A DNA stretch of 64,000 bases from Croceivirga sp. (GCA_028281025.1 JANQKR010000034.1:9848-73847), one strand, 5' to 3'; positions 55,550 to 64,000 are shown, numbered from the stretch's first letter. The notes: generated by a model from the sequence alone, not told the origin. Translations and numbers: made by a program.

Positions 55550-56437
55550 TTAGTTATTGTAACCAAACCGTTTTAATTGATTGCTGTTGGAACGCCAGTT
55601 CTTGTTGACTTTTACGTACAGCTCAATATGGACCTGTTTTCCAAAGAATTTTTCCAAATCTTCCCGGGCCCCAACGCCCACTTTCTTAAGGGCGCTACCT
55701 TTATGTCCAATAATGATCCCCTTTTGGGAGTCCCGTTCCACCATGATAATGGAGCGGATCCTAATGATCTGTTCGTCCTCCAAAAATTCCTCGGTCTCCA
55801 CTTCCACGGAATAGGGAATCTCTTTTTTGTAATGCAATAGAATTTTTTCCCTTATGGCTTCATTGACAAAAAAGCGTTCGGGTTTATCGGTGAATTGATC
55901 CTTGGGAAAATAGGGAGGCCCCTCTGGAAGCAATTCCAAAATCCGCTTAAAGACTTCTTCCACATTGAAGTTTTCCAAAGCGGAAATTGGATGTATTTCG
56001 GCATGGGGCAACTGTTCCTTCCAAAAAGTTACCTGCGCTTCCAAAATCTGTTGTTCCGAAGTGTCAATTTTATTCAGGAGCAACAACACCGGAATGGATG
56101 TATTCCTGATTTTTTGGAAAAAATCGGCGTCCTTTAACCCCTTTTCCCCAATTTCGACCATATACAAAAGCACATCGGCATCTTCCAAAGCGGATTTCAC
56201 AAAATTCATCATGGACTGCTGTAGCTCATAGGCCGGTTTAATAATCCCGGGGGTATCCGAAAAAACCACTTGAAAATCCTCCCCATTGACAATTCCAAAG
56301 ATGCGATGGCGTGTTGTTTGCGCTTTGGAGGTGATAATGGAGAGCTTTTCCCCCACCAAAGCATTCATTAAAGTGGATTTTCCAACATTGGGGTTTCCAA
56401 TAATGTTTACAAAACCGGATTTATGGGTCTTTTCCAT
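55550..56437 (-). CDS. era: GTPase Era (true start MEKTHKSG)
   Basis: GNPNVGKST, QTTR, DTPG, NKID and KH-domain GIIIG..G. Confidence 0.98.
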   Translation of the reverse strand: MEKTHKSGFVNIIGNPNVGKSTLMNALVGEKLSIITSKAQTTRHRIFGIVNGEDFQVVFSDTPGIIKPAYELQQSMMNFVKSALEDADVLLYMVEIGEKGLKDADFFQKIRNTSIPVLLLLNKIDTSEQQILEAQVTFWKEQLPHAEIHPISALENFNVEEVFKRILELLPEGPPYFPKDQFTDKPERFFVNEAIREKILLHYKKEIPYSVEVETEEFLEDEQIIRIRSIIMVERDSQKGIIIGHKGSALKKVGVGAREDLEKFFGKQVHIELYVKVNKNWRSNSNQLKRFGYNN

Positions 56438-56545
56438 AAAAGCAAAGCTACAAACAAAAAAGGGCCGGATAAACCGACCCTTTCCAATTAAAGTACCAAC
56501 GGAAATTCCCCCAAATCCATTGGACATGATGGTATCGAATTCCAT

Positions 56546-56586
56546 TTGAAAAGTCATCACAAAATTTAGGTGATGACAATTTTCAA
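56546..56586. promoter_or_regulatory. Operator-like inverted repeat upstream of the lipoprotein cluster
   Basis: TTGAAAAGTCATCAC-N9-GTGATGAC(AA)TTTTCAA. Confidence 0.55.
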
Positions 56587-56615
56587 TACCCTCGATATAC
56601 CCTAAAAACAACATC

Positions 56616-57836
56616 ATGAAATCAACGATTGTCCTTTCCATTTTCCTGGCCCTCTCCCTTTGTTCCTGTATGGGGAGACAAGAACACCAAGGTGAAAACC
56701 AATATCACGGGGATTCCCTGAAATATGAAGCTGCGTATGGCGAAGCCATCCCAGGACATACTACCTTTCCAGAGGCAGAAAAACAGGGTTTTTTTGATCG
56801 GTTCAACACTACATCCCCAAAAACCCACACTTTTAGGGATGCCAGAACCGGATTAGTGGTACAAACCAGTGATTATCCCAGTGATTGGAAGGTTATTTCC
56901 AAACCACTGTACACCTTCGATCAAAAACTACCCAATTTTCTCGTTCAGGTTGAAGGTCCAAACAACCTGAAACATTTCAATACCCCCTTTAAATTTTATT
57001 TCACTTTCAGCAATCCCCAGATGAACCAGTATGTCTCTTCTCCCATGAATCAGATGTTAAGGCCTATTGTGGGGAACCAGCAAATACATCAGGAAGAAGT
57101 CGCTCCACGAATGCAACGCAGCGGATTTACATACGTAGGAACCAAAGCCATGCCCAGGGAGGAAGCCTATGCCAGAAAAATACTGAAGGACAAAGGAACC
57201 GGGCAAGAACAATTGGAAATCGTAAACACCGAATGGAAAAGCGAAACTGGGCAACGCGCTTTGGCCACCATTGTCAAAGTCGCATTGCAGCAACCCATTT
57301 CACAACAGGACTACGTGATGGTATGGTTTTATGGTGTGGCGTACACTTTTGTGGACGGCCGCCACTTTGAACAGACCCTGGACGACCTTTATGCCTCTGC
57401 GACAAGCACAAAATTCAATCCCCAATGGGAGCAGTACGTTACGCAATTGGCCCAACAACGACAACGGGAACAAGCCAGAAAATCCGCTATGGACCATCAA
57501 AACCGAATGAATGCGAGATGGGCTTCCTTTAATGCCCATCAACAAAAAATGAAAGGTATTTGGGCGGCCCAGGATGCCAATCATGCCTCCTTTATGAATA
57601 GAAATTTTGGCCCTGGAAGTGATATTGGCCAAAAACAGTTTGTCAACATGATCAATGAGCAAGAGACGGTGTACAACCCGTTGACCGGCAAAAACTACCA
57701 GGTCAATGCAGGCTCTACTGAATATTGGATGGACAGTGAAGGCAATTACATCCAAAACAACGATCTGTTCTATACCCCAAATGGGGACATTAATCTTAAT
57801 AATCGCGAATGGGTAAAGGTGCAAAAAGCCTTTTGA
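56616..57836 (+). CDS. Hypothetical lipoprotein with Gln-rich helical C-terminal region
   Basis: Lipobox LCSC; 406-aa ORF. Confidence 0.8.
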   Translation: MKSTIVLSIFLALSLCSCMGRQEHQGENQYHGDSLKYEAAYGEAIPGHTTFPEAEKQGFFDRFNTTSPKTHTFRDARTGLVVQTSDYPSDWKVISKPLYTFDQKLPNFLVQVEGPNNLKHFNTPFKFYFTFSNPQMNQYVSSPMNQMLRPIVGNQQIHQEEVAPRMQRSGFTYVGTKAMPREEAYARKILKDKGTGQEQLEIVNTEWKSETGQRALATIVKVALQQPISQQDYVMVWFYGVAYTFVDGRHFEQTLDDLYASATSTKFNPQWEQYVTQLAQQRQREQARKSAMDHQNRMNARWASFNAHQQKMKGIWAAQDANHASFMNRNFGPGSDIGQKQFVNMINEQETVYNPLTGKNYQVNAGSTEYWMDSEGNYIQNNDLFYTPNGDINLNNREWVKVQKAF

Positions 57837-57897
57837 TGACAATTCATCTTTTTTTCGATAAACAAAAAAGAATAGAAAAACTTTAAATCAAAATCTT

Positions 57898-58278
57898 ATG
57901 AAAAACGTAGTTAAAATCACCTTGCTTTTGTTAACGATAGTTACATTTTCCTGCTCTTCCGACGACTCCAACGACAATGACGAACCGCTGGTATTTGTGG
58001 GGAGTTGGTCAGGAACTTTCTCGGGAGGGGACAGTGGTGTCTGGAGTGCTATTATTACCGAAGAGGGTACAGTAACTGGGGATGCATTTTCAAATACTGC
58101 GCAAGAAAGTCTTCCCTTAAATGGAACCATATCGACCGAGGGTTCATTTAGAGCTACTGCCGGAACGGCAGAGAATGGTGCAACGTTCAGTGGCACATTT
58201 ACGGTAGACTCTTCTTCCGGCACTTGGGAAAACAATGCCGATCAAATCTCCGGAACATGGATGGGTGCGAGAAACTAA
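57898..58278 (+). CDS. Small beta-rich lipoprotein
   Basis: Lipobox TFSC; GSWSGTF, GATFSGTF and SGTW strands. Confidence 0.82.
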   Translation: MKNVVKITLLLLTIVTFSCSSDDSNDNDEPLVFVGSWSGTFSGGDSGVWSAIITEEGTVTGDAFSNTAQESLPLNGTISTEGSFRATAGTAENGATFSGTFTVDSSSGTWENNADQISGTWMGARN

Positions 58279-58325
58279 ATCCGTAATAAAGCCTATAACT
58301 TTTTTGATTGGACAACCAAAAAATT

Positions 58326-60527
58326 ATGAAAACACTACATACATTTTTACTGCTAACCCTGGTAATCACCGGAGGCCTTGTTGGATGTTCTTCGGGGGAC
58401 GATACGGATCAAATGTTGGATGATGATGTGATACAGAACGAAGACCCCAATACTCCGGATGATCCTGAAGAACCCAATGCCACTTTTGAAGAGGTCGCGG
58501 TCCAAGTAAGCCTACCACAAGGGGCCTCCCTGGATGTATCTACCGCCAAGCTCTTTTCTTTGGGAAGTACCTCAGCGGTGGCAAGTTCTGGACAAGGGAC
58601 AATCCCCTTTAATCCGGGAACGGTGGAACTGGCCTATCTGCTGGATGCTGAGGACAACCTGCTCTTGGCCGGTTTTGTGTCCGAGGACCAAAAAGAACTG
58701 TCCGTTGCCACTACTGTGGAGGTGATGCTCTATTTTGGGCTCGATTATTACCTTTTACCAAACTCGGCTAAAGCGGCTTTTTTGAAAGGAGTTCGTCAAA
58801 CTTCAATTTTTAATGGTTTGAAAGATGAGGTTGAACAACTTTTTATCAATGACCCCTTAATGTTCACCAAAGGTTCGTACACCTCGGCCCTTACCGCTGC
58901 CTTGGACCAACTTTCCACAAATAAGGGAAGTAACCACATGGCAAACCGTATCTTCTTTAACGACGAAACCACAAAAAGTGGGGTAACCCTTTCTGCAATT
59001 GATTCCACCAGGATCCAACTGCAAAATGCATTGCCCAGACGATCTCGGGTATTGATCTATAAAAAATCAATAACGGACAGAGATGGAAATGAAATGGAAA
59101 TTCCCAATTACACGGATACCCCTTTCGAAAATTTTGAATTGGAAATTGGGAAGCTCAACGAAATTGAGAACCTGAATTTTGGATCTTCCCTTGCTCAAAT
59201 TAGTGCGCAACAGGCTTCCATTGACAATGCATCGAGTACCGGACCAATACTTCTGCCCGTTAATCCCGTAACGGAATTTGTTGCGGAATACGAAGTAGTA
59301 CTCATTGGTTCGGGACAACCACAGGACGAAGCAAGGAACATGACCATGGCGGAGTTGGAAATCTATGGGAACCTCACAAAAAGAACCTACATCCTGGATT
59401 ATTTTCTACCCACCTTATTGGAGATTGGGGGAAACAGGTCGCTTTTACCCCCTTTTGGAAGTGCTAAGCAAGAAGCATTGTTCAATGCCATCTCACCCAT
59501 TTTGGAACAATATCCCGATGTATTGGATGAAGTGGCGGACAACGAATTCAAAAGCGCCTCCAACATTCTTTTGCCCGCTTTATATGAAGATATTCGGTTA
59601 AGCAATGATCTAAGGACCATTTTAACGGATGTGTACAACATCCTTTCCGGAAATGGTGATTTCCCCAATACCTTTATTCAGAGCCAGGAACTTATTGAAA
59701 CGGGGTATCCTAGAACCCGGTTTATCCTTAGGACCATTGATCGGAACATTAAGGCTAGTAATCCCTTTGCCAATTTTGCGGGTTTGGATACGGCAGCCTT
59801 CAATTTTGAAAGTTGGTTGGTACAATCCATTGATGCGGTGGTAGATATGCAGCAGGACAATGTAGAATTATGTCTTGGTGAGGCCACGGAACTTCGGGTG
59901 ACCGCAATTACCTCCTTTGAGCCGGAGGTTGAGGAATTTGAATTTCATTGGAGTACGAGCAATGAATTTGGGGGAAGGGTTCAGGACATTGGTGGGGATC
60001 CCAACAATTTTGTTTCCTATATCAGTACCGCTTTGGAATCAAATTTAGGAAGTGGCAATAATCCAGAAACCGTGACCGTTGTGCTTTATTTCAGAAATAA
60101 GAATACCGGGGAATTGAGCGAGGCCGGGCGGGATACCATGACCGTTAATAACATAAAGGGGTGCGAATCCTTCTTTGTTGGCTTTACCCAGGAAGTGGAA
60201 ATTGCTGAAAATCCAGAGGATCTTGGTTGTGGTGGAAATACGGAATACCGTGTCCAGGGCGGGAGGTTTGTGGCCAGATTCGCACCTGTTGAAAATGCGG
60301 TATCCTATACGGGCAGAATACTGCGCAAGGACGGAACTTTTGGAAATGAATTTAGTTTTGTACCCAATGATATTGGTAACGGTCTGGTGGAGTTCTTTAC
60401 GGCCATTGAAGTGACCAATATTCTTTTTACCTGCAATAGACAACAAGCGGAAGAACGGCAACAGGAACTTTTCAATCGGTTGGAGGAAATTGGCCATCAA
60501 GGGATTGAAATCACCCCCGTCTTCTAA
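58326..60527 (+). CDS. Large hypothetical surface lipoprotein
   Basis: Lipobox LVGC followed by an acidic D/P linker; ~733 aa. Confidence 0.82.
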   Translation: MKTLHTFLLLTLVITGGLVGCSSGDDTDQMLDDDVIQNEDPNTPDDPEEPNATFEEVAVQVSLPQGASLDVSTAKLFSLGSTSAVASSGQGTIPFNPGTVELAYLLDAEDNLLLAGFVSEDQKELSVATTVEVMLYFGLDYYLLPNSAKAAFLKGVRQTSIFNGLKDEVEQLFINDPLMFTKGSYTSALTAALDQLSTNKGSNHMANRIFFNDETTKSGVTLSAIDSTRIQLQNALPRRSRVLIYKKSITDRDGNEMEIPNYTDTPFENFELEIGKLNEIENLNFGSSLAQISAQQASIDNASSTGPILLPVNPVTEFVAEYEVVLIGSGQPQDEARNMTMAELEIYGNLTKRTYILDYFLPTLLEIGGNRSLLPPFGSAKQEALFNAISPILEQYPDVLDEVADNEFKSASNILLPALYEDIRLSNDLRTILTDVYNILSGNGDFPNTFIQSQELIETGYPRTRFILRTIDRNIKASNPFANFAGLDTAAFNFESWLVQSIDAVVDMQQDNVELCLGEATELRVTAITSFEPEVEEFEFHWSTSNEFGGRVQDIGGDPNNFVSYISTALESNLGSGNNPETVTVVLYFRNKNTGELSEAGRDTMTVNNIKGCESFFVGFTQEVEIAENPEDLGCGGNTEYRVQGGRFVARFAPVENAVSYTGRILRKDGTFGNEFSFVPNDIGNGLVEFFTAIEVTNILFTCNRQQAEERQQELFNRLEEIGHQGIEITPVF

Positions 60528-60633
60528 ATGGCAGGGCAATACGTGTAACATTAGCCGGAAAACCATGAATTTAAACCGGATTTATTTTGTAAGCTGTTGA
60601 AAATCTCTAACTTCCCCGTACTTTCCAAAAAGT

Positions 60634-61206
60634 ATGGGGGATACTTTTCAACAAGGGGAAAAAGACATCGTTCAAGGTTTCAAAAACAACGATGCCGTCA
60701 TTATGAAAACCGTATATCTCCAAACCTATCCTAAAGTGAGAAATTACATTCTTAAGAACAATGGGAATGATGATCATGCCAAAGACACTTTTCAAGAAGC
60801 CTTTGTGGCCTGCTGGAGCAATATCAAAGCCGATAAGTTCTCGGAAAACGGCAATGTGGAAGCCTACCTTTTTACCATTGCAAAAAACAAGTGGACCGAT
60901 TATTTAAGATCTTCGGATTTTAAAAAGAAGGTTACCGCAAACAGCTTCACCCAACTCAAGGCAGTTACCGAAGATAGCTTGGCCAATGAATCCGAAGCGG
61001 AACATCGCAGAAGATTGCTACGACAGGCATTGGAGCAATTAGGGGATAATTGCAGAAAACTGTTGCAGCTTTTTTATTTTGAACGGAAGTCCATGAAGGA
61101 GATTTCGATTGAAATGAAGGTCGCCCCTGCATCCGCAAGAAATCAAAAGTATCGTTGTATGGAAAAACTTCGAACCCTAAGTCTAGCAATTAAAGAAAAT
61201 GGATAA
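60634..61206 (+). CDS. ECF RNA polymerase sigma factor
   Basis: AKDTFQEAF, YLFTIAKNKW region 2; CRKLLQLFY.E.KSMKEI region 4. Confidence 0.93.
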   Translation: MGDTFQQGEKDIVQGFKNNDAVIMKTVYLQTYPKVRNYILKNNGNDDHAKDTFQEAFVACWSNIKADKFSENGNVEAYLFTIAKNKWTDYLRSSDFKKKVTANSFTQLKAVTEDSLANESEAEHRRRLLRQALEQLGDNCRKLLQLFYFERKSMKEISIEMKVAPASARNQKYRCMEKLRTLSLAIKENG

Positions 61207-61927
61207 AGGCCCCAAATACCTATCCGAAAAGGAACAAGACCGTTTTGAGGAATACCTGTTGGGTAGAATGTCCACTCAAGCGGCCACGCAATTTCAACAA
61301 GAATTGGAGGAAGATTCCAAACTGTCCGAACAATTTCAGGAATTTAAAGCATTGTTTCGTACCATTGAGGAAGCGGCTCTACGCAATGCCTTGGAAGATT
61401 TTCACAACGAAACCTTACCCCCAAAAAACAAAAAGACAAGGACTACATTCTACCGAATTGCCGCAGGAGTAGCTATCCTTATGGCCTTGGGCACAGGGTA
61501 TTGGTTGATCAATCGTGCAACACCCAGTGAACGTGTATTCGAAACCTATTTCTCACCAGATCCAGGATTACCAACGGTTATGGGCTCCCAGGATAATTAT
61601 GCTTTTTATGAGGCCATGGTGGACTACAAGAGGGGGGACTATACCAGTGCCATTAAAAAATGGGAAAAACTATATGGGAGCAAATCCGAAAAGGATACCT
61701 TAAATTATTTTTTGGGATGTGCCCATCTTGCCAATGGCACTGCGGAATCTGCCCTTGATTATTTGAAAAGAAACGAGCACGACACCCATTCTGCTTTTTA
61801 CCAGGAATCCAATTATTTTCTTGGGTTGGCATATCTTAAACTGAATCAAAGGGACGCGGCATTACCCTATTTTAAAAGGAGTGGGCTACCAAAGTCCAAG
61901 GAAATTCTCGAGTTGATTTCAAAGTAG
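61199..61927 (+). CDS. Putative transmembrane anti-sigma factor with periplasmic TPR
   Basis: FEEYLLGRM N-terminal helix bundle, TM FYRIAAGVAILMALG, then TPR-like helices; overlaps the sigma stop. Confidence 0.82.
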   Translation: MDKGPKYLSEKEQDRFEEYLLGRMSTQAATQFQQELEEDSKLSEQFQEFKALFRTIEEAALRNALEDFHNETLPPKNKKTRTTFYRIAAGVAILMALGTGYWLINRATPSERVFETYFSPDPGLPTVMGSQDNYAFYEAMVDYKRGDYTSAIKKWEKLYGSKSEKDTLNYFLGCAHLANGTAESALDYLKRNEHDTHSAFYQESNYFLGLAYLKLNQRDAALPYFKRSGLPKSKEILELISK

Positions 61928-61929
61928 TC

Positions 61930-64000
61930 ATGAAAAAAGAGTTGGTTTGGATAGGTGTGGTCTTGCTGTTTTTCCACTACAGTTTACCAGGACAGGTTCC
62001 TTCCCCGGACGTTCGGGGAAGACAGTTCATAGACAGCCTTATTAGCGCCAATGCCTTACAGGCCGCAAATACGGAATTGCAAACGCAGATAGCCTACTAC
62101 CTTAAAAATGCCGTTGATAGTCTTCCCCGGTACGTACGTTTGGTGGGCAGTTATAATCTGGCGAAAAACGATTGGAATATCGCCACGTCCAGGGCCGAAG
62201 GTTTTGTAAGCCAAATTAAAAAGGTTTCAACACCAAGAACCCAGATAGCGGCATTGATCGAACTTTCAAATCTTTACTTTGATGCCCGCTTCCACCAAAA
62301 AAATTATGATGCCTCAGCAGAAGCCCTTCAATTGGCACGCACTTTGGATAACTTTGAAGTGGCAAAAACTTCGCTATTGGAGTACAACAAGGGAAATGCC
62401 TTGTTGTATATGGGCAAGTATGCCCAAGCACAAATCCATTTTTTGCGCTCCAAGAAGATTTTGGACCGTAACCCAGAAATAGCACTGGAACAATTCTACA
62501 ATACCTATAACAATTTGGGCCGTGTTTATGCCAACCTTTCCATGTTGGATAGCGCCAACCATTATTACAAAAAGGCACTTGGTTCTTTGAACGATTTTGA
62601 AAGCCCAAATGCCGATATTTACTACAGAAAGGCAATTATTGGGAACAACCTCTCCCTAAATTATCAAAATGTTGGAAAAACGGAAGAGGCGATCGAGACC
62701 CTTCAAAAATCTGCCGAGAACTTTCAAAAATATGTTGAACAAGGTGATGACGAATCCAAGAAAATAAGATCCAAAAGAAATCGACTTGTAGCCATCGATA
62801 ATTTGGGGACCTTCTTTCAAGGTATTGGGGAATATGGCAAGGCCATAGAACTGATCAACCTTTCCTACCTTCAAAAGAAGCGCTATTTACCGGAGGATGA
62901 TCCTGATATTATCATATCCAAAATATTACTTGCCGAAGCACATTTTTCCGCGAAAAATTTTGCCAAGGCCAGGACCTATATTAATCAGGTACTCGTGCAG
63001 ATCGGAAAAAATCCAGAAAGACTGGCATACATTGATAGCTACTCCAAAAATGTAAAAGCCGCGATTGAAGAGGCTACCGGGAATTTTGAAGAAGCCCGAT
63101 TTTTTTACGAAAAGAGTGAATCCGTTCTAAAAAAGGAAGTTTCAAGAAATTATTTACCGGAAGAACTGGACGGACTCATACGGATGTCCCAGTTTTATGC
63201 AAAAACCGGCCATCTGGAAAAGGGACTATCATTGGCTTTGGAAGGGTATACCTATACCCACCGCCCCGGCTTTGAAAACGAATTGGTAAAAATTGCCCAT
63301 ACCAAAAATGTAGCGGACATCCATTTAAAATCACAGGACTATCAAAAAGCATTGAAGTACGGCCAGGAAGCATTGTCCAATTATGATGAAGTTTCAGCCG
63401 ATGGTAAAGAAGTGTCCAATTATGTTAAAATCACTTTTGAGAAACCCGGCATCCTGTTACTCCGGGCAAAGGCAAAGTACCACTTGGAAAAGAACAAATC
63501 CGAATCGCATCTAAAGGATATTTTGAAAGAACTTGATGAGGGCATTGAAATCCTTAACAAAAGACGTAGTCTCATCATAACGTACAACGACCTCCATGTG
63601 CTTCTGGCCGAAAACAAAGCCTTCTTTGACTTTATGAAGCAACTTCATCTGGAACTCTATGAACTTACTTCAGATGAGCGGTATCTTAAAAAAGTATTGG
63701 AATTCCATGAATCCAATTTGTACAACAGGATTCGGTCAAGATTAAACCTGACCAATACTTACAATTTTAAGAACATCCCCAGTGAAGTCCTTAAAAAAGA
63801 GGATGACCTGAAAAATACTTTAATGGTTCCCATCAAAAAAAATGAAGGGGTTAAAAACTATGTAAGGAACACTAAAATCTGGCATCAATTTCTTGATTCC
63901 CTTAAGACAACATATCCGCAATATTACAATTTAAAGTATGCATCCCTTGCGGAGACCTTGGACGATTTAAACGAAAAACTCCCCAAGGAATCCACGCTCG
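61930..64000 (+). CDS. Secreted TPR protein, probable CHAT (caspase-like) protease; runs off the window end
   Basis: Open frame from ATG 61930 (MKKELVWIGVVLLFF) to the end; multiple TPRs; pre-CHAT linker-like VLEFHES...R and LDSLKTTYPQYYNLKY; the catalytic domain is not visible. Confidence 0.75.
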   Translation, partial: MKKELVWIGVVLLFFHYSLPGQVPSPDVRGRQFIDSLISANALQAANTELQTQIAYYLKNAVDSLPRYVRLVGSYNLAKNDWNIATSRAEGFVSQIKKVSTPRTQIAALIELSNLYFDARFHQKNYDASAEALQLARTLDNFEVAKTSLLEYNKGNALLYMGKYAQAQIHFLRSKKILDRNPEIALEQFYNTYNNLGRVYANLSMLDSANHYYKKALGSLNDFESPNADIYYRKAIIGNNLSLNYQNVGKTEEAIETLQKSAENFQKYVEQGDDESKKIRSKRNRLVAIDNLGTFFQGIGEYGKAIELINLSYLQKKRYLPEDDPDIIISKILLAEAHFSAKNFAKARTYINQVLVQIGKNPERLAYIDSYSKNVKAAIEEATGNFEEARFFYEKSESVLKKEVSRNYLPEELDGLIRMSQFYAKTGHLEKGLSLALEGYTYTHRPGFENELVKIAHTKNVADIHLKSQDYQKALKYGQEALSNYDEVSADGKEVSNYVKITFEKPGILLLRAKAKYHLEKNKSESHLKDILKELDEGIEILNKRRSLIITYNDLHVLLAENKAFFDFMKQLHLELYELTSDERYLKKVLEFHESNLYNRIRSRLNLTNTYNFKNIPSEVLKKEDDLKNTLMVPIKKNEGVKNYVRNTKIWHQFLDSLKTTYPQYYNLKYASLAETLDDLNEKLPKESTL

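Follow-up and report, generated by a model that had tools for sequence, protein, structure and literature searches.

The stretch of DNA analysed here, which we call the window, comprises 64,000 nt from the 5.1-Mb genome (49 contigs) of a Croceivirga sp. (GCA_028281025.1; JANQKR010000034.1:9848-73847), a marine-type member of the Flavobacteriaceae, and its final part is occupied by three genes that may form a conserved envelope-signalling module of the Bacteroidota. The three open reading frames (ORFs) lie on the same (+) strand and fill the interval from 60634 to the end of the window at 64000. The first (60634-61206) encodes a sigma-70 factor of 190 amino acids belonging to the extracytoplasmic function (ECF, group IV) class, and the second (61199-61927) an anti-sigma-like protein of 242 amino acids. 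The third (61930-64000) is still open at the window end and supplies codons 1-690 of 1085, encoding the signal peptide and the tetratricopeptide repeat (TPR) array of an exported TPR-CHAT protease. Its 3' part was read from the window's own contig (C26:9848-73847), where the gene ends at window-equivalent position 65187 (L002 1778-5035). A base-level check placed the overlap between the sigma and anti-sigma genes at 8 nt, ATGGATAA (61199-61206; context AAAATGGATAAAGG), and the gap between the anti-sigma stop and the CHAT start at 2 nt, TAG-tc-ATG (61928-61929; context AAGTAGtcATGAAA). Both values agree with a preliminary description made from the window alone, which had also proposed that an ECF sigma factor, a TPR anti-sigma-like protein and an exported TPR-CHAT protein are encoded as a cassette, and had expected the CHAT dyad motifs to lie past the window. 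The cassette was borne out by Pfam, TIGR02937, protein topology and the continuation of the contig, and the dyad motifs were indeed present on the latter.

The product of the first gene is an ECF (group IV) sigma-70 factor and has the size (~170-220 amino acids) and domain content of that family. Within its 190 residues it contains only regions 2 and 4, matched by Pfam Sigma70_r2 (28-94) and Sigma70_r4_2 (127-179), and it scored 90.3 bits against the NCBIfam model TIGR02937 (sigma70-ECF; cut-off 42.9). Its nearest solved relatives in the PDB are SigL, SigK, SigW and RpoE.

The second protein is predicted to have a polar cytoplasmic N-terminus of ~83 amino acids, one transmembrane helix at ~84-105 (FYRIAAGVAILMALGTGYWLI) and a periplasmic TPR domain at ~136-242, that is, a single membrane-spanning segment between a cytoplasmic part and an extracytoplasmic domain. 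The position of the helix is kept in 52 orthologues, and a juxtamembrane stretch, YFSPDPGLPTVM (117-128), is conserved. Anti-sigma models of NCBIfam gave matches that were all below threshold: NF047528 in 24 of the 52 orthologues and NF052375 in 18, the latter also matching the protein encoded here (E 8e-4, residues 17-108; again sub-threshold). Residues 1-83 contain no Cys, and thus no ZAS zinc motif (H-x3-C-x2-C), leaving at most a non-zinc anti-sigma domain (ASD). In a mirror-tree analysis the closest co-variation among all the regions compared was that of the cytoplasmic part with the sigma factor (r 0.82). Position and overlap with the sigma gene, single-pass topology, the sub-threshold NCBIfam matches and this co-variation together make gene 2 a probable non-zinc class I anti-sigma factor, predicted to bind the sigma factor encoded beside it.

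The third protein, of 1085 amino acids, consists of a signal peptide, a long TPR array, a CHAT domain and a C-terminal anchor. The Pfam CHAT model (PF12770) matched residues 739-1040 over almost its full length (profile positions 2-289 of 289; E 7.2e-38; 131.1 bits against a cut-off of 24), and the two dyad motifs read HIGTHAE (His900) and LTACETG (Cys950). Both residues were invariant in alignments of 22 full-length homologues and of 81 CHAT-domain homologues; judged from these alignments, CHAT catalysis is under selection, and an invariant dyad does not name the substrate. Beyond the window, a transmembrane anchor at ~1052-1072 is followed by RRKRK, and only ~10 residues separate it from the end of the CHAT domain, which would place the catalytic domain at the membrane surface. 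A C-terminal hydrophobic helix with a Lys/Arg tail was present in 118 of 119 full-length homologues, and a hydrophobic signal-like N-terminal segment in 106 of the same set; in the homologue N-termini that were inspected this segment usually ends in (A/S/G)Q, the usual residue pattern at signal-peptidase sites in Bacteroidota. Since positive charges stand at both ends, the bulk of the protein should lie in the periplasm with or without cleavage of the signal, and the protein is predicted to lie beside the transmembrane helix of the anti-sigma factor. We also noted that the C-terminus of the protein family (L002 4900-5035, window-equivalent ~65050-65187) has a short, conserved P-I/L-x-L stretch followed by the hydrophobic helix and the Lys/Arg cluster, a three-part layout that resembles exosortase/rhombosortase-type sorting signals; it is probably a plain membrane anchor.

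The orthologous family consists of Flavobacteriaceae proteins of 1020-1110 amino acids that are named only 'CHAT domain-containing (tetratricopeptide repeat) protein'. With a mean pairwise identity of 0.63, the CHAT domain is the most conserved part of the whole system, ahead of the juxtamembrane and periplasmic parts of the anti-sigma factor (0.48-0.49) and of the TPR array of the CHAT protein (0.42, in the range 0.39-0.44). Searches of the PDB with the whole CHAT protein, either as a single sequence or as a full-length profile, returned TPR proteins only. A CHAT-only profile matched a single entry, DdvA (8ROT/8RW5), at a marginal E of 0.52 and with Cys950 aligned with DdvA Cys907. DdvA belongs to the DdvS/DdvA system of Myxococcus xanthus, composed of an ECF sigma factor and an anti-sigma factor with a periplasmic TPR-CHAT (PMC11506125, PMC6061681; PDB 8ROT/8RW5). 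A full-length AF2 model was good over the TPR array and unusable over CHAT (pLDDT < 50 over 802-987), and a model of the CHAT domain made separately (residues 660-1050, 81 sequences) reached a pTM of 0.80. Foldseek comparison of the latter with the PDB gave Csx29 as best match (E 8.5e-15 to 1e-10; TM-score 0.5-0.62), followed by two mouse sperm-axoneme chains (9ijj), separases (~1e-7), DdvA (2e-7), SAVED-CHAT and gingipain. From this model, the assignment of the domain to the caspase-hemoglobinase fold is secure; its active-site loops are of low confidence.

The conservation of the arrangement was assessed by a genome scan that returned 419 loci with relatives, 80 of which were fetched and compared. 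Homologues of both the sigma factor and the anti-sigma factor were found in 55 of the 80, in ~50 of them directly upstream of CHAT and in identical order, a recurrence far beyond chance. Spacing in 46 adjacent loci was operon-like, with -11 to +20 nt (median ~4) between sigma and anti-sigma genes and mostly -4 to +42 nt (median ~11) between anti-sigma and CHAT genes. In five Aequorivita loci the sigma and anti-sigma genes lie 2-7 kb downstream of CHAT, and in ~25 of the 80, mostly from Aequorivita, neither was found within 6 kb of it.

Of 201 Flavobacteriaceae genomes, one for each genus label, ~34 contained clear orthologues of the CHAT protein (>480 bits) and ~50 more contained distant TPR-CHAT paralogues. 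Hidden Markov models (HMMs) detected homologues of the sigma factor and the TPR anti-sigma factor close to the distant paralogues in 20 of 20 loci, in co-directional, convergent or divergent orientation, and in these loci the cargo genes and the promoter motif (described below) differ. Orthologues from other families of the class kept both partners in four out of four cases; in one distant lineage (four loci) an anti-sigma-like gene in convergent orientation and, close by, a sigma gene were recognised on weak HMM matches; and in further Bacteroidota lineages the three genes are co-directional and the CHAT protein again has both signal and anchor. Another dozen or so TPR-CHAT genes in the sample lack sigma and anti-sigma neighbours. 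Across the 201 genomes, CHAT and this type of anti-sigma factor occurred together in 76, CHAT alone in 8, the anti-sigma type alone in 11 and neither in 106, giving an odds ratio of 92 (Fisher p 1e-33, uncorrected for phylogeny). Conserved linkage and co-occurrence of this kind suggest that the protease is likely to be functionally tied to the sigma/anti-sigma pair. In all related loci examined, as in the window, the anti-sigma factor and the TPR-CHAT protein are encoded by separate genes, and no fused protein of the DdvA type was found among the ten longest Bacteroidota frames sampled.

Two deviating contexts were seen in the course of this comparison. In genome G052, which has no related CHAT gene, an orphan anti-sigma gene stands beside a 52-amino acid ORF (L124 6615-6773, + strand) that resembles a decayed sigma region 4 (...YFDKKSLREYA...ARIKKH...); the locus looks like a module in decay. 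Loci L130 and L132 (genomes G474 and G223) encode another type of TPR-CHAT protein, of ~1150 amino acids and lacking the C-terminal anchor, directly behind an exported protein of ~950 amino acids whose N-terminus appears by eye to be vWA-like. L130 has a sigma gene ~1.3 kb away; an anti-sigma gene was detected by the HMMs in neither of the two. The two loci seem to represent a CHAT context of their own.

A search for k-mer pairs upstream of the sigma genes gave hits at control level only. Inspection of the sequences, in contrast, revealed a bipartite ECF-style motif, TGATGAC-N15-CGAT, with the fuller form TGATGAC(A/C)TTT - N - (T)CG(A/T)T, upstream of the sigma genes of relatives, and this was then tested against scrambled patterns. 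It occurred in 144 copies in 72 of the 80 loci, whereas 40 scrambled patterns averaged 3.5 copies and never exceeded 12. The first ORF behind the motif was the sigma gene in 19 loci and CHAT in one (L030); in the others it included homologues of three lipoprotein genes that flank the operon studied here, namely up406 (35), down264 (15) and up739 (3), as well as, in 10, the anti-sigma gene, by way of a copy inside the sigma ORF. A further 44 proteins encoded behind the motif share the C-terminal tail of the type IX secretion system (T9SS), among them beta-propeller repeat proteins and an S8 peptidase. The median distance from motif to start codon was 31 nt for cargo (lipoprotein or T9SS) genes and ~93 nt for sigma genes.

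A position weight matrix (PWM) built from 118 sites was scanned over the whole 5.1-Mb genome. The four best sites genome-wide (28.1, 24.5, 24.1 and 21.6 bits) all fell within 10 kb around the operon, and the fifth reached only 16.7 bits, which is below 90% of the training sites. The best, TGATGACAATTTTCAATACCCTCGAT (56571-56596, + strand, 28.1 bits), ends 19 nt before the start of up406, and the second, TGATGACAATTCATCTTTTTTTCGAT (57834-57859, + strand, 24.5 bits), 38 nt before up126. The third, GATGACTTTTCAAATGGAATTCGAT (56534-56558, - strand, 24.1 bits), is divergent from the cluster and lies ~100 nt before the likely start of an era-type gene, and the fourth (21.6 bits) precedes the down264 lipoprotein gene just past CHAT. 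An autoregulation argument, taken with this co-location, points to the sigma factor of the operon as the one that reads TGATGAC-N15-CGAT. A large regulon was considered and rejected: the loose pattern occurred genome-wide at chance level (101 copies against ~88 expected), and the only strong PWM sites were the four local ones.

All three genes upstream of the operon are on the + strand and encode putative lipoproteins. Up406 (56616-57836; 406 amino acids) has 111 homologues, which carry no Pfam domain and are named only hypothetical protein or lipoprotein, and in 39 of the 80 related loci one of them is encoded close to the cassette. Up126 (57898-58278; 126 amino acids) is an ORF with a lipoprotein signal, and up739 (58308-60527; 739 amino acids, start codon uncertain) has homologues in five related loci, directly behind the motif in three. 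The cargo proteins carry lipoprotein signal sequences; they had no match in Pfam (E <= 10), NCBIfam or PADLOC, and the names of their homologues were uninformative. The Era-type GTPase ORF (55550-56641; likely start MEKTHKSGF) has its motif back-to-back with the up406 promoter, and a comparable pair exists in L013.

Relatives showed several variations on this theme. In nine or ten related loci (L007, L009, L012, L016, L021, L023, L051, L064 and L077) the sigma gene carries a full motif copy, TGATGACATTTTAAAAGAAAACCGAT, towards its 3' end, ~230 nt ahead of the start of the anti-sigma gene; the sigma gene of the present genome has none. A promoter at this site would permit sigma-dependent transcription of the anti-sigma and CHAT genes apart from the sigma gene, and thus a built-in negative feedback. 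In many relatives the motif stands before diverse type-IX-secreted proteins encoded just past CHAT (for example L040 10276-, L029 10403-, L068 9144- and L022 (-) 3285), a set that includes beta-propeller repeat proteins and an S8 subtilisin-like peptidase. The one type-IX member tested, from L022, has no homologue in the present genome.

Two other features of the surroundings should be mentioned. A 13-bp RNA hairpin (60612-60641, + strand) holds the sigma start codon in its 3' arm. It is part of a longer structure, to which the minimum free energy of -22.5 kcal/mol refers (z -3.5; 0 of 200 shuffles equally stable), and the closest relative, L004, shows by eye a comparable inverted repeat at the sigma start. 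The hairpin could act as a translational gate, or as an attenuator that sets the sigma operon apart from the lipoprotein genes upstream. Downstream of the cassette, L002 7707-14088 (window-equivalent ~67860-74240) encodes a helix-turn-helix (HTH) protein, a protein of 1239 amino acids, small HTH genes and a tyrosine-recombinase-like integrase. By eye, the 1239-residue protein resembles a fusion of an N6-adenine methylase with a restriction-specificity protein. The segment looks like a mobile island, 3-9 kb from the cassette, and was not seen in L004.

These results suggest a model in which the ECF sigma factor, its cognate anti-sigma factor and a periplasmic TPR-CHAT protease constitute a conserved envelope-signalling module of the Bacteroidota, a reading to which we assign a probability of roughly 0.5. 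That the three proteins work as a single signalling unit, with CHAT as part of its input, we consider probable. This view draws on the precedent of the DdvA fusion, on the persistence of the triad despite changes in gene order, motif and cargo, and on genomic co-occurrence, as well as on the membrane-proximal position of the catalytic domain and the graded conservation from CHAT through the anti-sigma periplasmic part to the TPR array. In the model, the short cytoplasmic N-terminus of the anti-sigma factor would hold the sigma factor, and the CHAT active site would sit at the membrane surface next to the juxtamembrane segment of the anti-sigma factor. The long, faster-evolving TPR array of the CHAT protein would be the likely signal receptor, and the activated protease would control the stability of the anti-sigma factor. 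In the likeliest and simplest variant, CHAT would act as a site-1 protease in trans and remove the anti-sigma periplasmic domain, after which intramembrane proteolysis would free the sigma factor. The freed sigma factor would recognise TGATGAC(A)TTT-N-(T)CGAT promoters; its local regulon would comprise the three upstream lipoprotein genes, one downstream lipoprotein gene, possibly era and, by read-through, probably the sigma operon. In relatives the promoter would also drive the sigma gene itself and type-IX-secreted proteins. Direct cutting of the anti-sigma factor by CHAT, although predicted by the model, is a tentative step. What the sequences show is the gene structure, the domains, the dyad, the fold, the topology by prediction, the conservation of the triad and the promoter motif with its placement; the binding of sigma to anti-sigma, the pairing of sigma with its motif, all proteolysis and the signal we infer.

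Several observations weigh against this model, or against parts of it. The N-terminus of the anti-sigma-like protein had no match to a Pfam ASD, and a profile of the protein found nothing in the PDB outside the TPRs and nothing for the N-terminus. The mirror-tree signal between its periplasmic domain and CHAT was weak (partial r 0.23) and was not used as support. We considered the juxtamembrane YFxPDPGLPTxM as a CHAT-specific cleavage site and ruled this out, as the motif is present in orphan anti-sigma factors too; in the distant CHAT-linked paralogues it occurs only in a looser form. Orthologue-grade sigma/anti-sigma pairs do exist without an adjacent CHAT gene, and 11 of the 201 genomes have this anti-sigma type and no related CHAT at all, which casts doubt on a strict dependence on CHAT. 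The sigma gene in the window has no motif copy in the 107-nt gap upstream of it, and the up126 promoter may feed the genes downstream of it, this operon included, by read-through. In the ~25 loci (of 80) that are mostly from Aequorivita, CHAT lies behind up406 under a sigma-type promoter, as a member of the regulon would. Finally, mutants in the DdvA dyad had no phenotype in unperturbed cells (PMC11506125).

The Aequorivita-type loci would fit an alternative that puts CHAT at the output end of the pathway, as a periplasmic effector under the same control that would process, mature or degrade the co-regulated lipoproteins, type-IX cargo or foreign proteins, while the anti-sigma factor's own TPR domain, together with general site-1 and site-2 proteases, senses the envelope signal. 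In these loci the sigma and anti-sigma genes are 2-7 kb away from CHAT or elsewhere; in one locus (L030) the motif directly precedes CHAT; CHAT has an up406 homologue nearby in 39 of 80 loci; and the orphan sigma/anti-sigma pairs do without CHAT. The cargo of ECF regulons normally varies, however, and it is the core regulators that persist, yet sigma and anti-sigma genes remain beside CHAT in 20 of 20 distant paralogue loci, even where they are convergent or divergent. The strong genome-level co-occurrence of CHAT with this anti-sigma type likewise argues against a mere effector, as does DdvA, in which CHAT is physically part of the anti-sigma factor. We regard this alternative as unlikely. 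CHAT might also act on the input side without cutting the anti-sigma factor, either as an RseB-like protective co-anti-sigma, released from the anti-sigma TPR domain after ligand binding or self-cleavage, or as the processor of an extracellular protein or peptide into a ligand for that domain. Both periplasmic partners carry TPR protein-binding modules, and the periplasmic domain of the anti-sigma factor is conserved (0.48-0.49), as for a fixed partner, while the TPR array of CHAT diverges (0.39-0.44). Against such roles, no gene for a GG-leader peptide or an exporter lies within ~15 kb in this genome, and the invariance of the dyad indicates that catalysis has been selected, albeit on a substrate it does not name. 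We rate non-cutting roles as rather improbable.

The preliminary description had further characterised the cassette as a stand-alone system, independent of CRISPR, that might serve threat sensing or defence. Its independence of CRISPR held: no cas gene was found within ~10 kb, and no PADLOC defence gene among the neighbours. The defence circuit found no support, the predicted regulon consisting of a few local lipoproteins and, in relatives, of T9SS proteins, and was dropped. An anti-phage or conflict system, in which the exported protease would respond to an invader by inducing defence genes, would be in keeping with the two characterised bacterial links between TPR-CHAT and sigma factors (DdvS/DdvA and craspase), both of which are defence-linked, and with the restriction-modification-like gene and integrase 3-9 kb downstream. 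Against this, neither the three core proteins nor the four cargo proteins had a PADLOC match, the predicted regulon is made up of local lipoproteins and T9SS cargo, the downstream island is missing from L004, the one related locus with the same downstream genes, and the single CHAT gene of the genome has no cas neighbours. We consider such a role very improbable. The likeness to type III-E systems put forward in the same description stands in part: Csx29 is the best fold match of the CHAT domain, and DdvS/DdvA, which had been overlooked, is a much closer precedent.

The module bears on how ECF sigma factors are switched. DdvA is the only sigma switch built on a periplasmic TPR-CHAT to have been studied so far, and its key step, cleavage by CHAT, is so far a proposal, because the protease and what it is presumed to cut belong to the same chain. 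With protease and anti-sigma factor encoded by two genes, the cleavage hypothesis becomes directly testable in trans, and the sharply defined promoter motif can be used as a reporter. The module is common in the Bacteroidota, a phylum rich in ECF sigma factors, and could therefore explain many of the uncharacterised 'CHAT domain-containing proteins' and, perhaps, the way in which Bacteroidota regulate surface lipoproteins and type-IX secretion cargo. Should a caspase-fold protease indeed prove to be a signal-gated site-1 protease of an anti-sigma factor in trans, with its TPR array as receptor for extracellular protein or peptide cues, which we regard as possible but doubtful, this would be a widespread form of transmembrane signalling in the Bacteroidota (at least 40% of the sampled Flavobacteriaceae genomes, plus other classes). 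It would also add a new class to the known triggers of regulated intramembrane proteolysis, one with small groups of surface lipoproteins and type-IX-secreted proteins under its control.

Regulated intramembrane proteolysis of anti-sigma factors is exemplified by RseA/DegS/RseP with RseB, by RsiW/PrsW and by RsiV. The proposed module would resemble these systems in its single-pass anti-sigma factor with a putative sigma-binding part in the cytoplasm and a periplasmic regulatory domain, in a candidate site-1 protease or co-regulator that is specific to the pair and encoded together with it or close by, and, in relatives, in a putatively autoregulated ECF promoter. It differs in that the candidate site-1 enzyme is a caspase-fold cysteine protease with a TPR sensor of ~650 residues; we know of no system in which a protease of this fold has been shown to be a site-1 protease acting in trans. 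The literature searched contained no paper linking CHAT, sigma factors and Bacteroidota or Flavobacteria, and the ECF re-classification paper says nothing of CHAT in its main text.

In the type III-E craspase, the TPR-CHAT protease Csx29 cuts Csx30, which is tied to the ECF sigma factor RpoE (PMC10028731; PDB 7ZOQ, 8EEY, 7Y9X). Like the protein described here, Csx29 has a CHAT protease with this His/Cys dyad behind a TPR array; it provides the best match to the predicted CHAT fold and connects proteolysis to a sigma regulator. In contrast to the predicted exported and membrane-anchored protein, which has no cas neighbours, it stays in the cytoplasm, where it is bound to Cas7-11 and responds to target RNA as its activator; moreover, the partner here is a classical membrane anti-sigma-like protein rather than Csx30 or Csx31.

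The closest characterised system is DdvS/DdvA, of which the present module would be a split, three-gene functional counterpart. Both would combine an ECF sigma factor under a single-pass anti-sigma factor with a TPR-CHAT on the periplasmic side of the inner membrane that carries a His/Cys dyad; for both, regulated proteolysis with CHAT as site-1 protease is a proposal; and DdvA is the only solved structure matched by the CHAT sequence profile (marginal E 0.52; fold match E 2e-7). Without its periplasmic TPR-CHAT domain, DdvA becomes exposed to RseP, and its authors proposed, but could not show, that CHAT is the site-1 protease (PMC11506125). Fusions of the DdvA kind were met by the same authors in Myxococcota and in one Comamonas only (PMC11506125). 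The DdvS/DdvA regulon consists of defence systems, CBASS and type III-B CRISPR. The module in the window, from the Bacteroidota, differs in that anti-sigma factor and TPR-CHAT are two proteins instead of one chain, in the separate signal peptide and C-terminal anchor of the CHAT protein and the small TPR domain that the anti-sigma factor retains, in that the CHCC zinc site of DdvA has no counterpart in the Cys-free anti-sigma N-terminus, and in a predicted regulon of local lipoproteins and T9SS cargo in place of CBASS and CRISPR. The triad is real, widespread and uncharacterised, and would be new as a split, trans-acting form of a DdvA-like switch.

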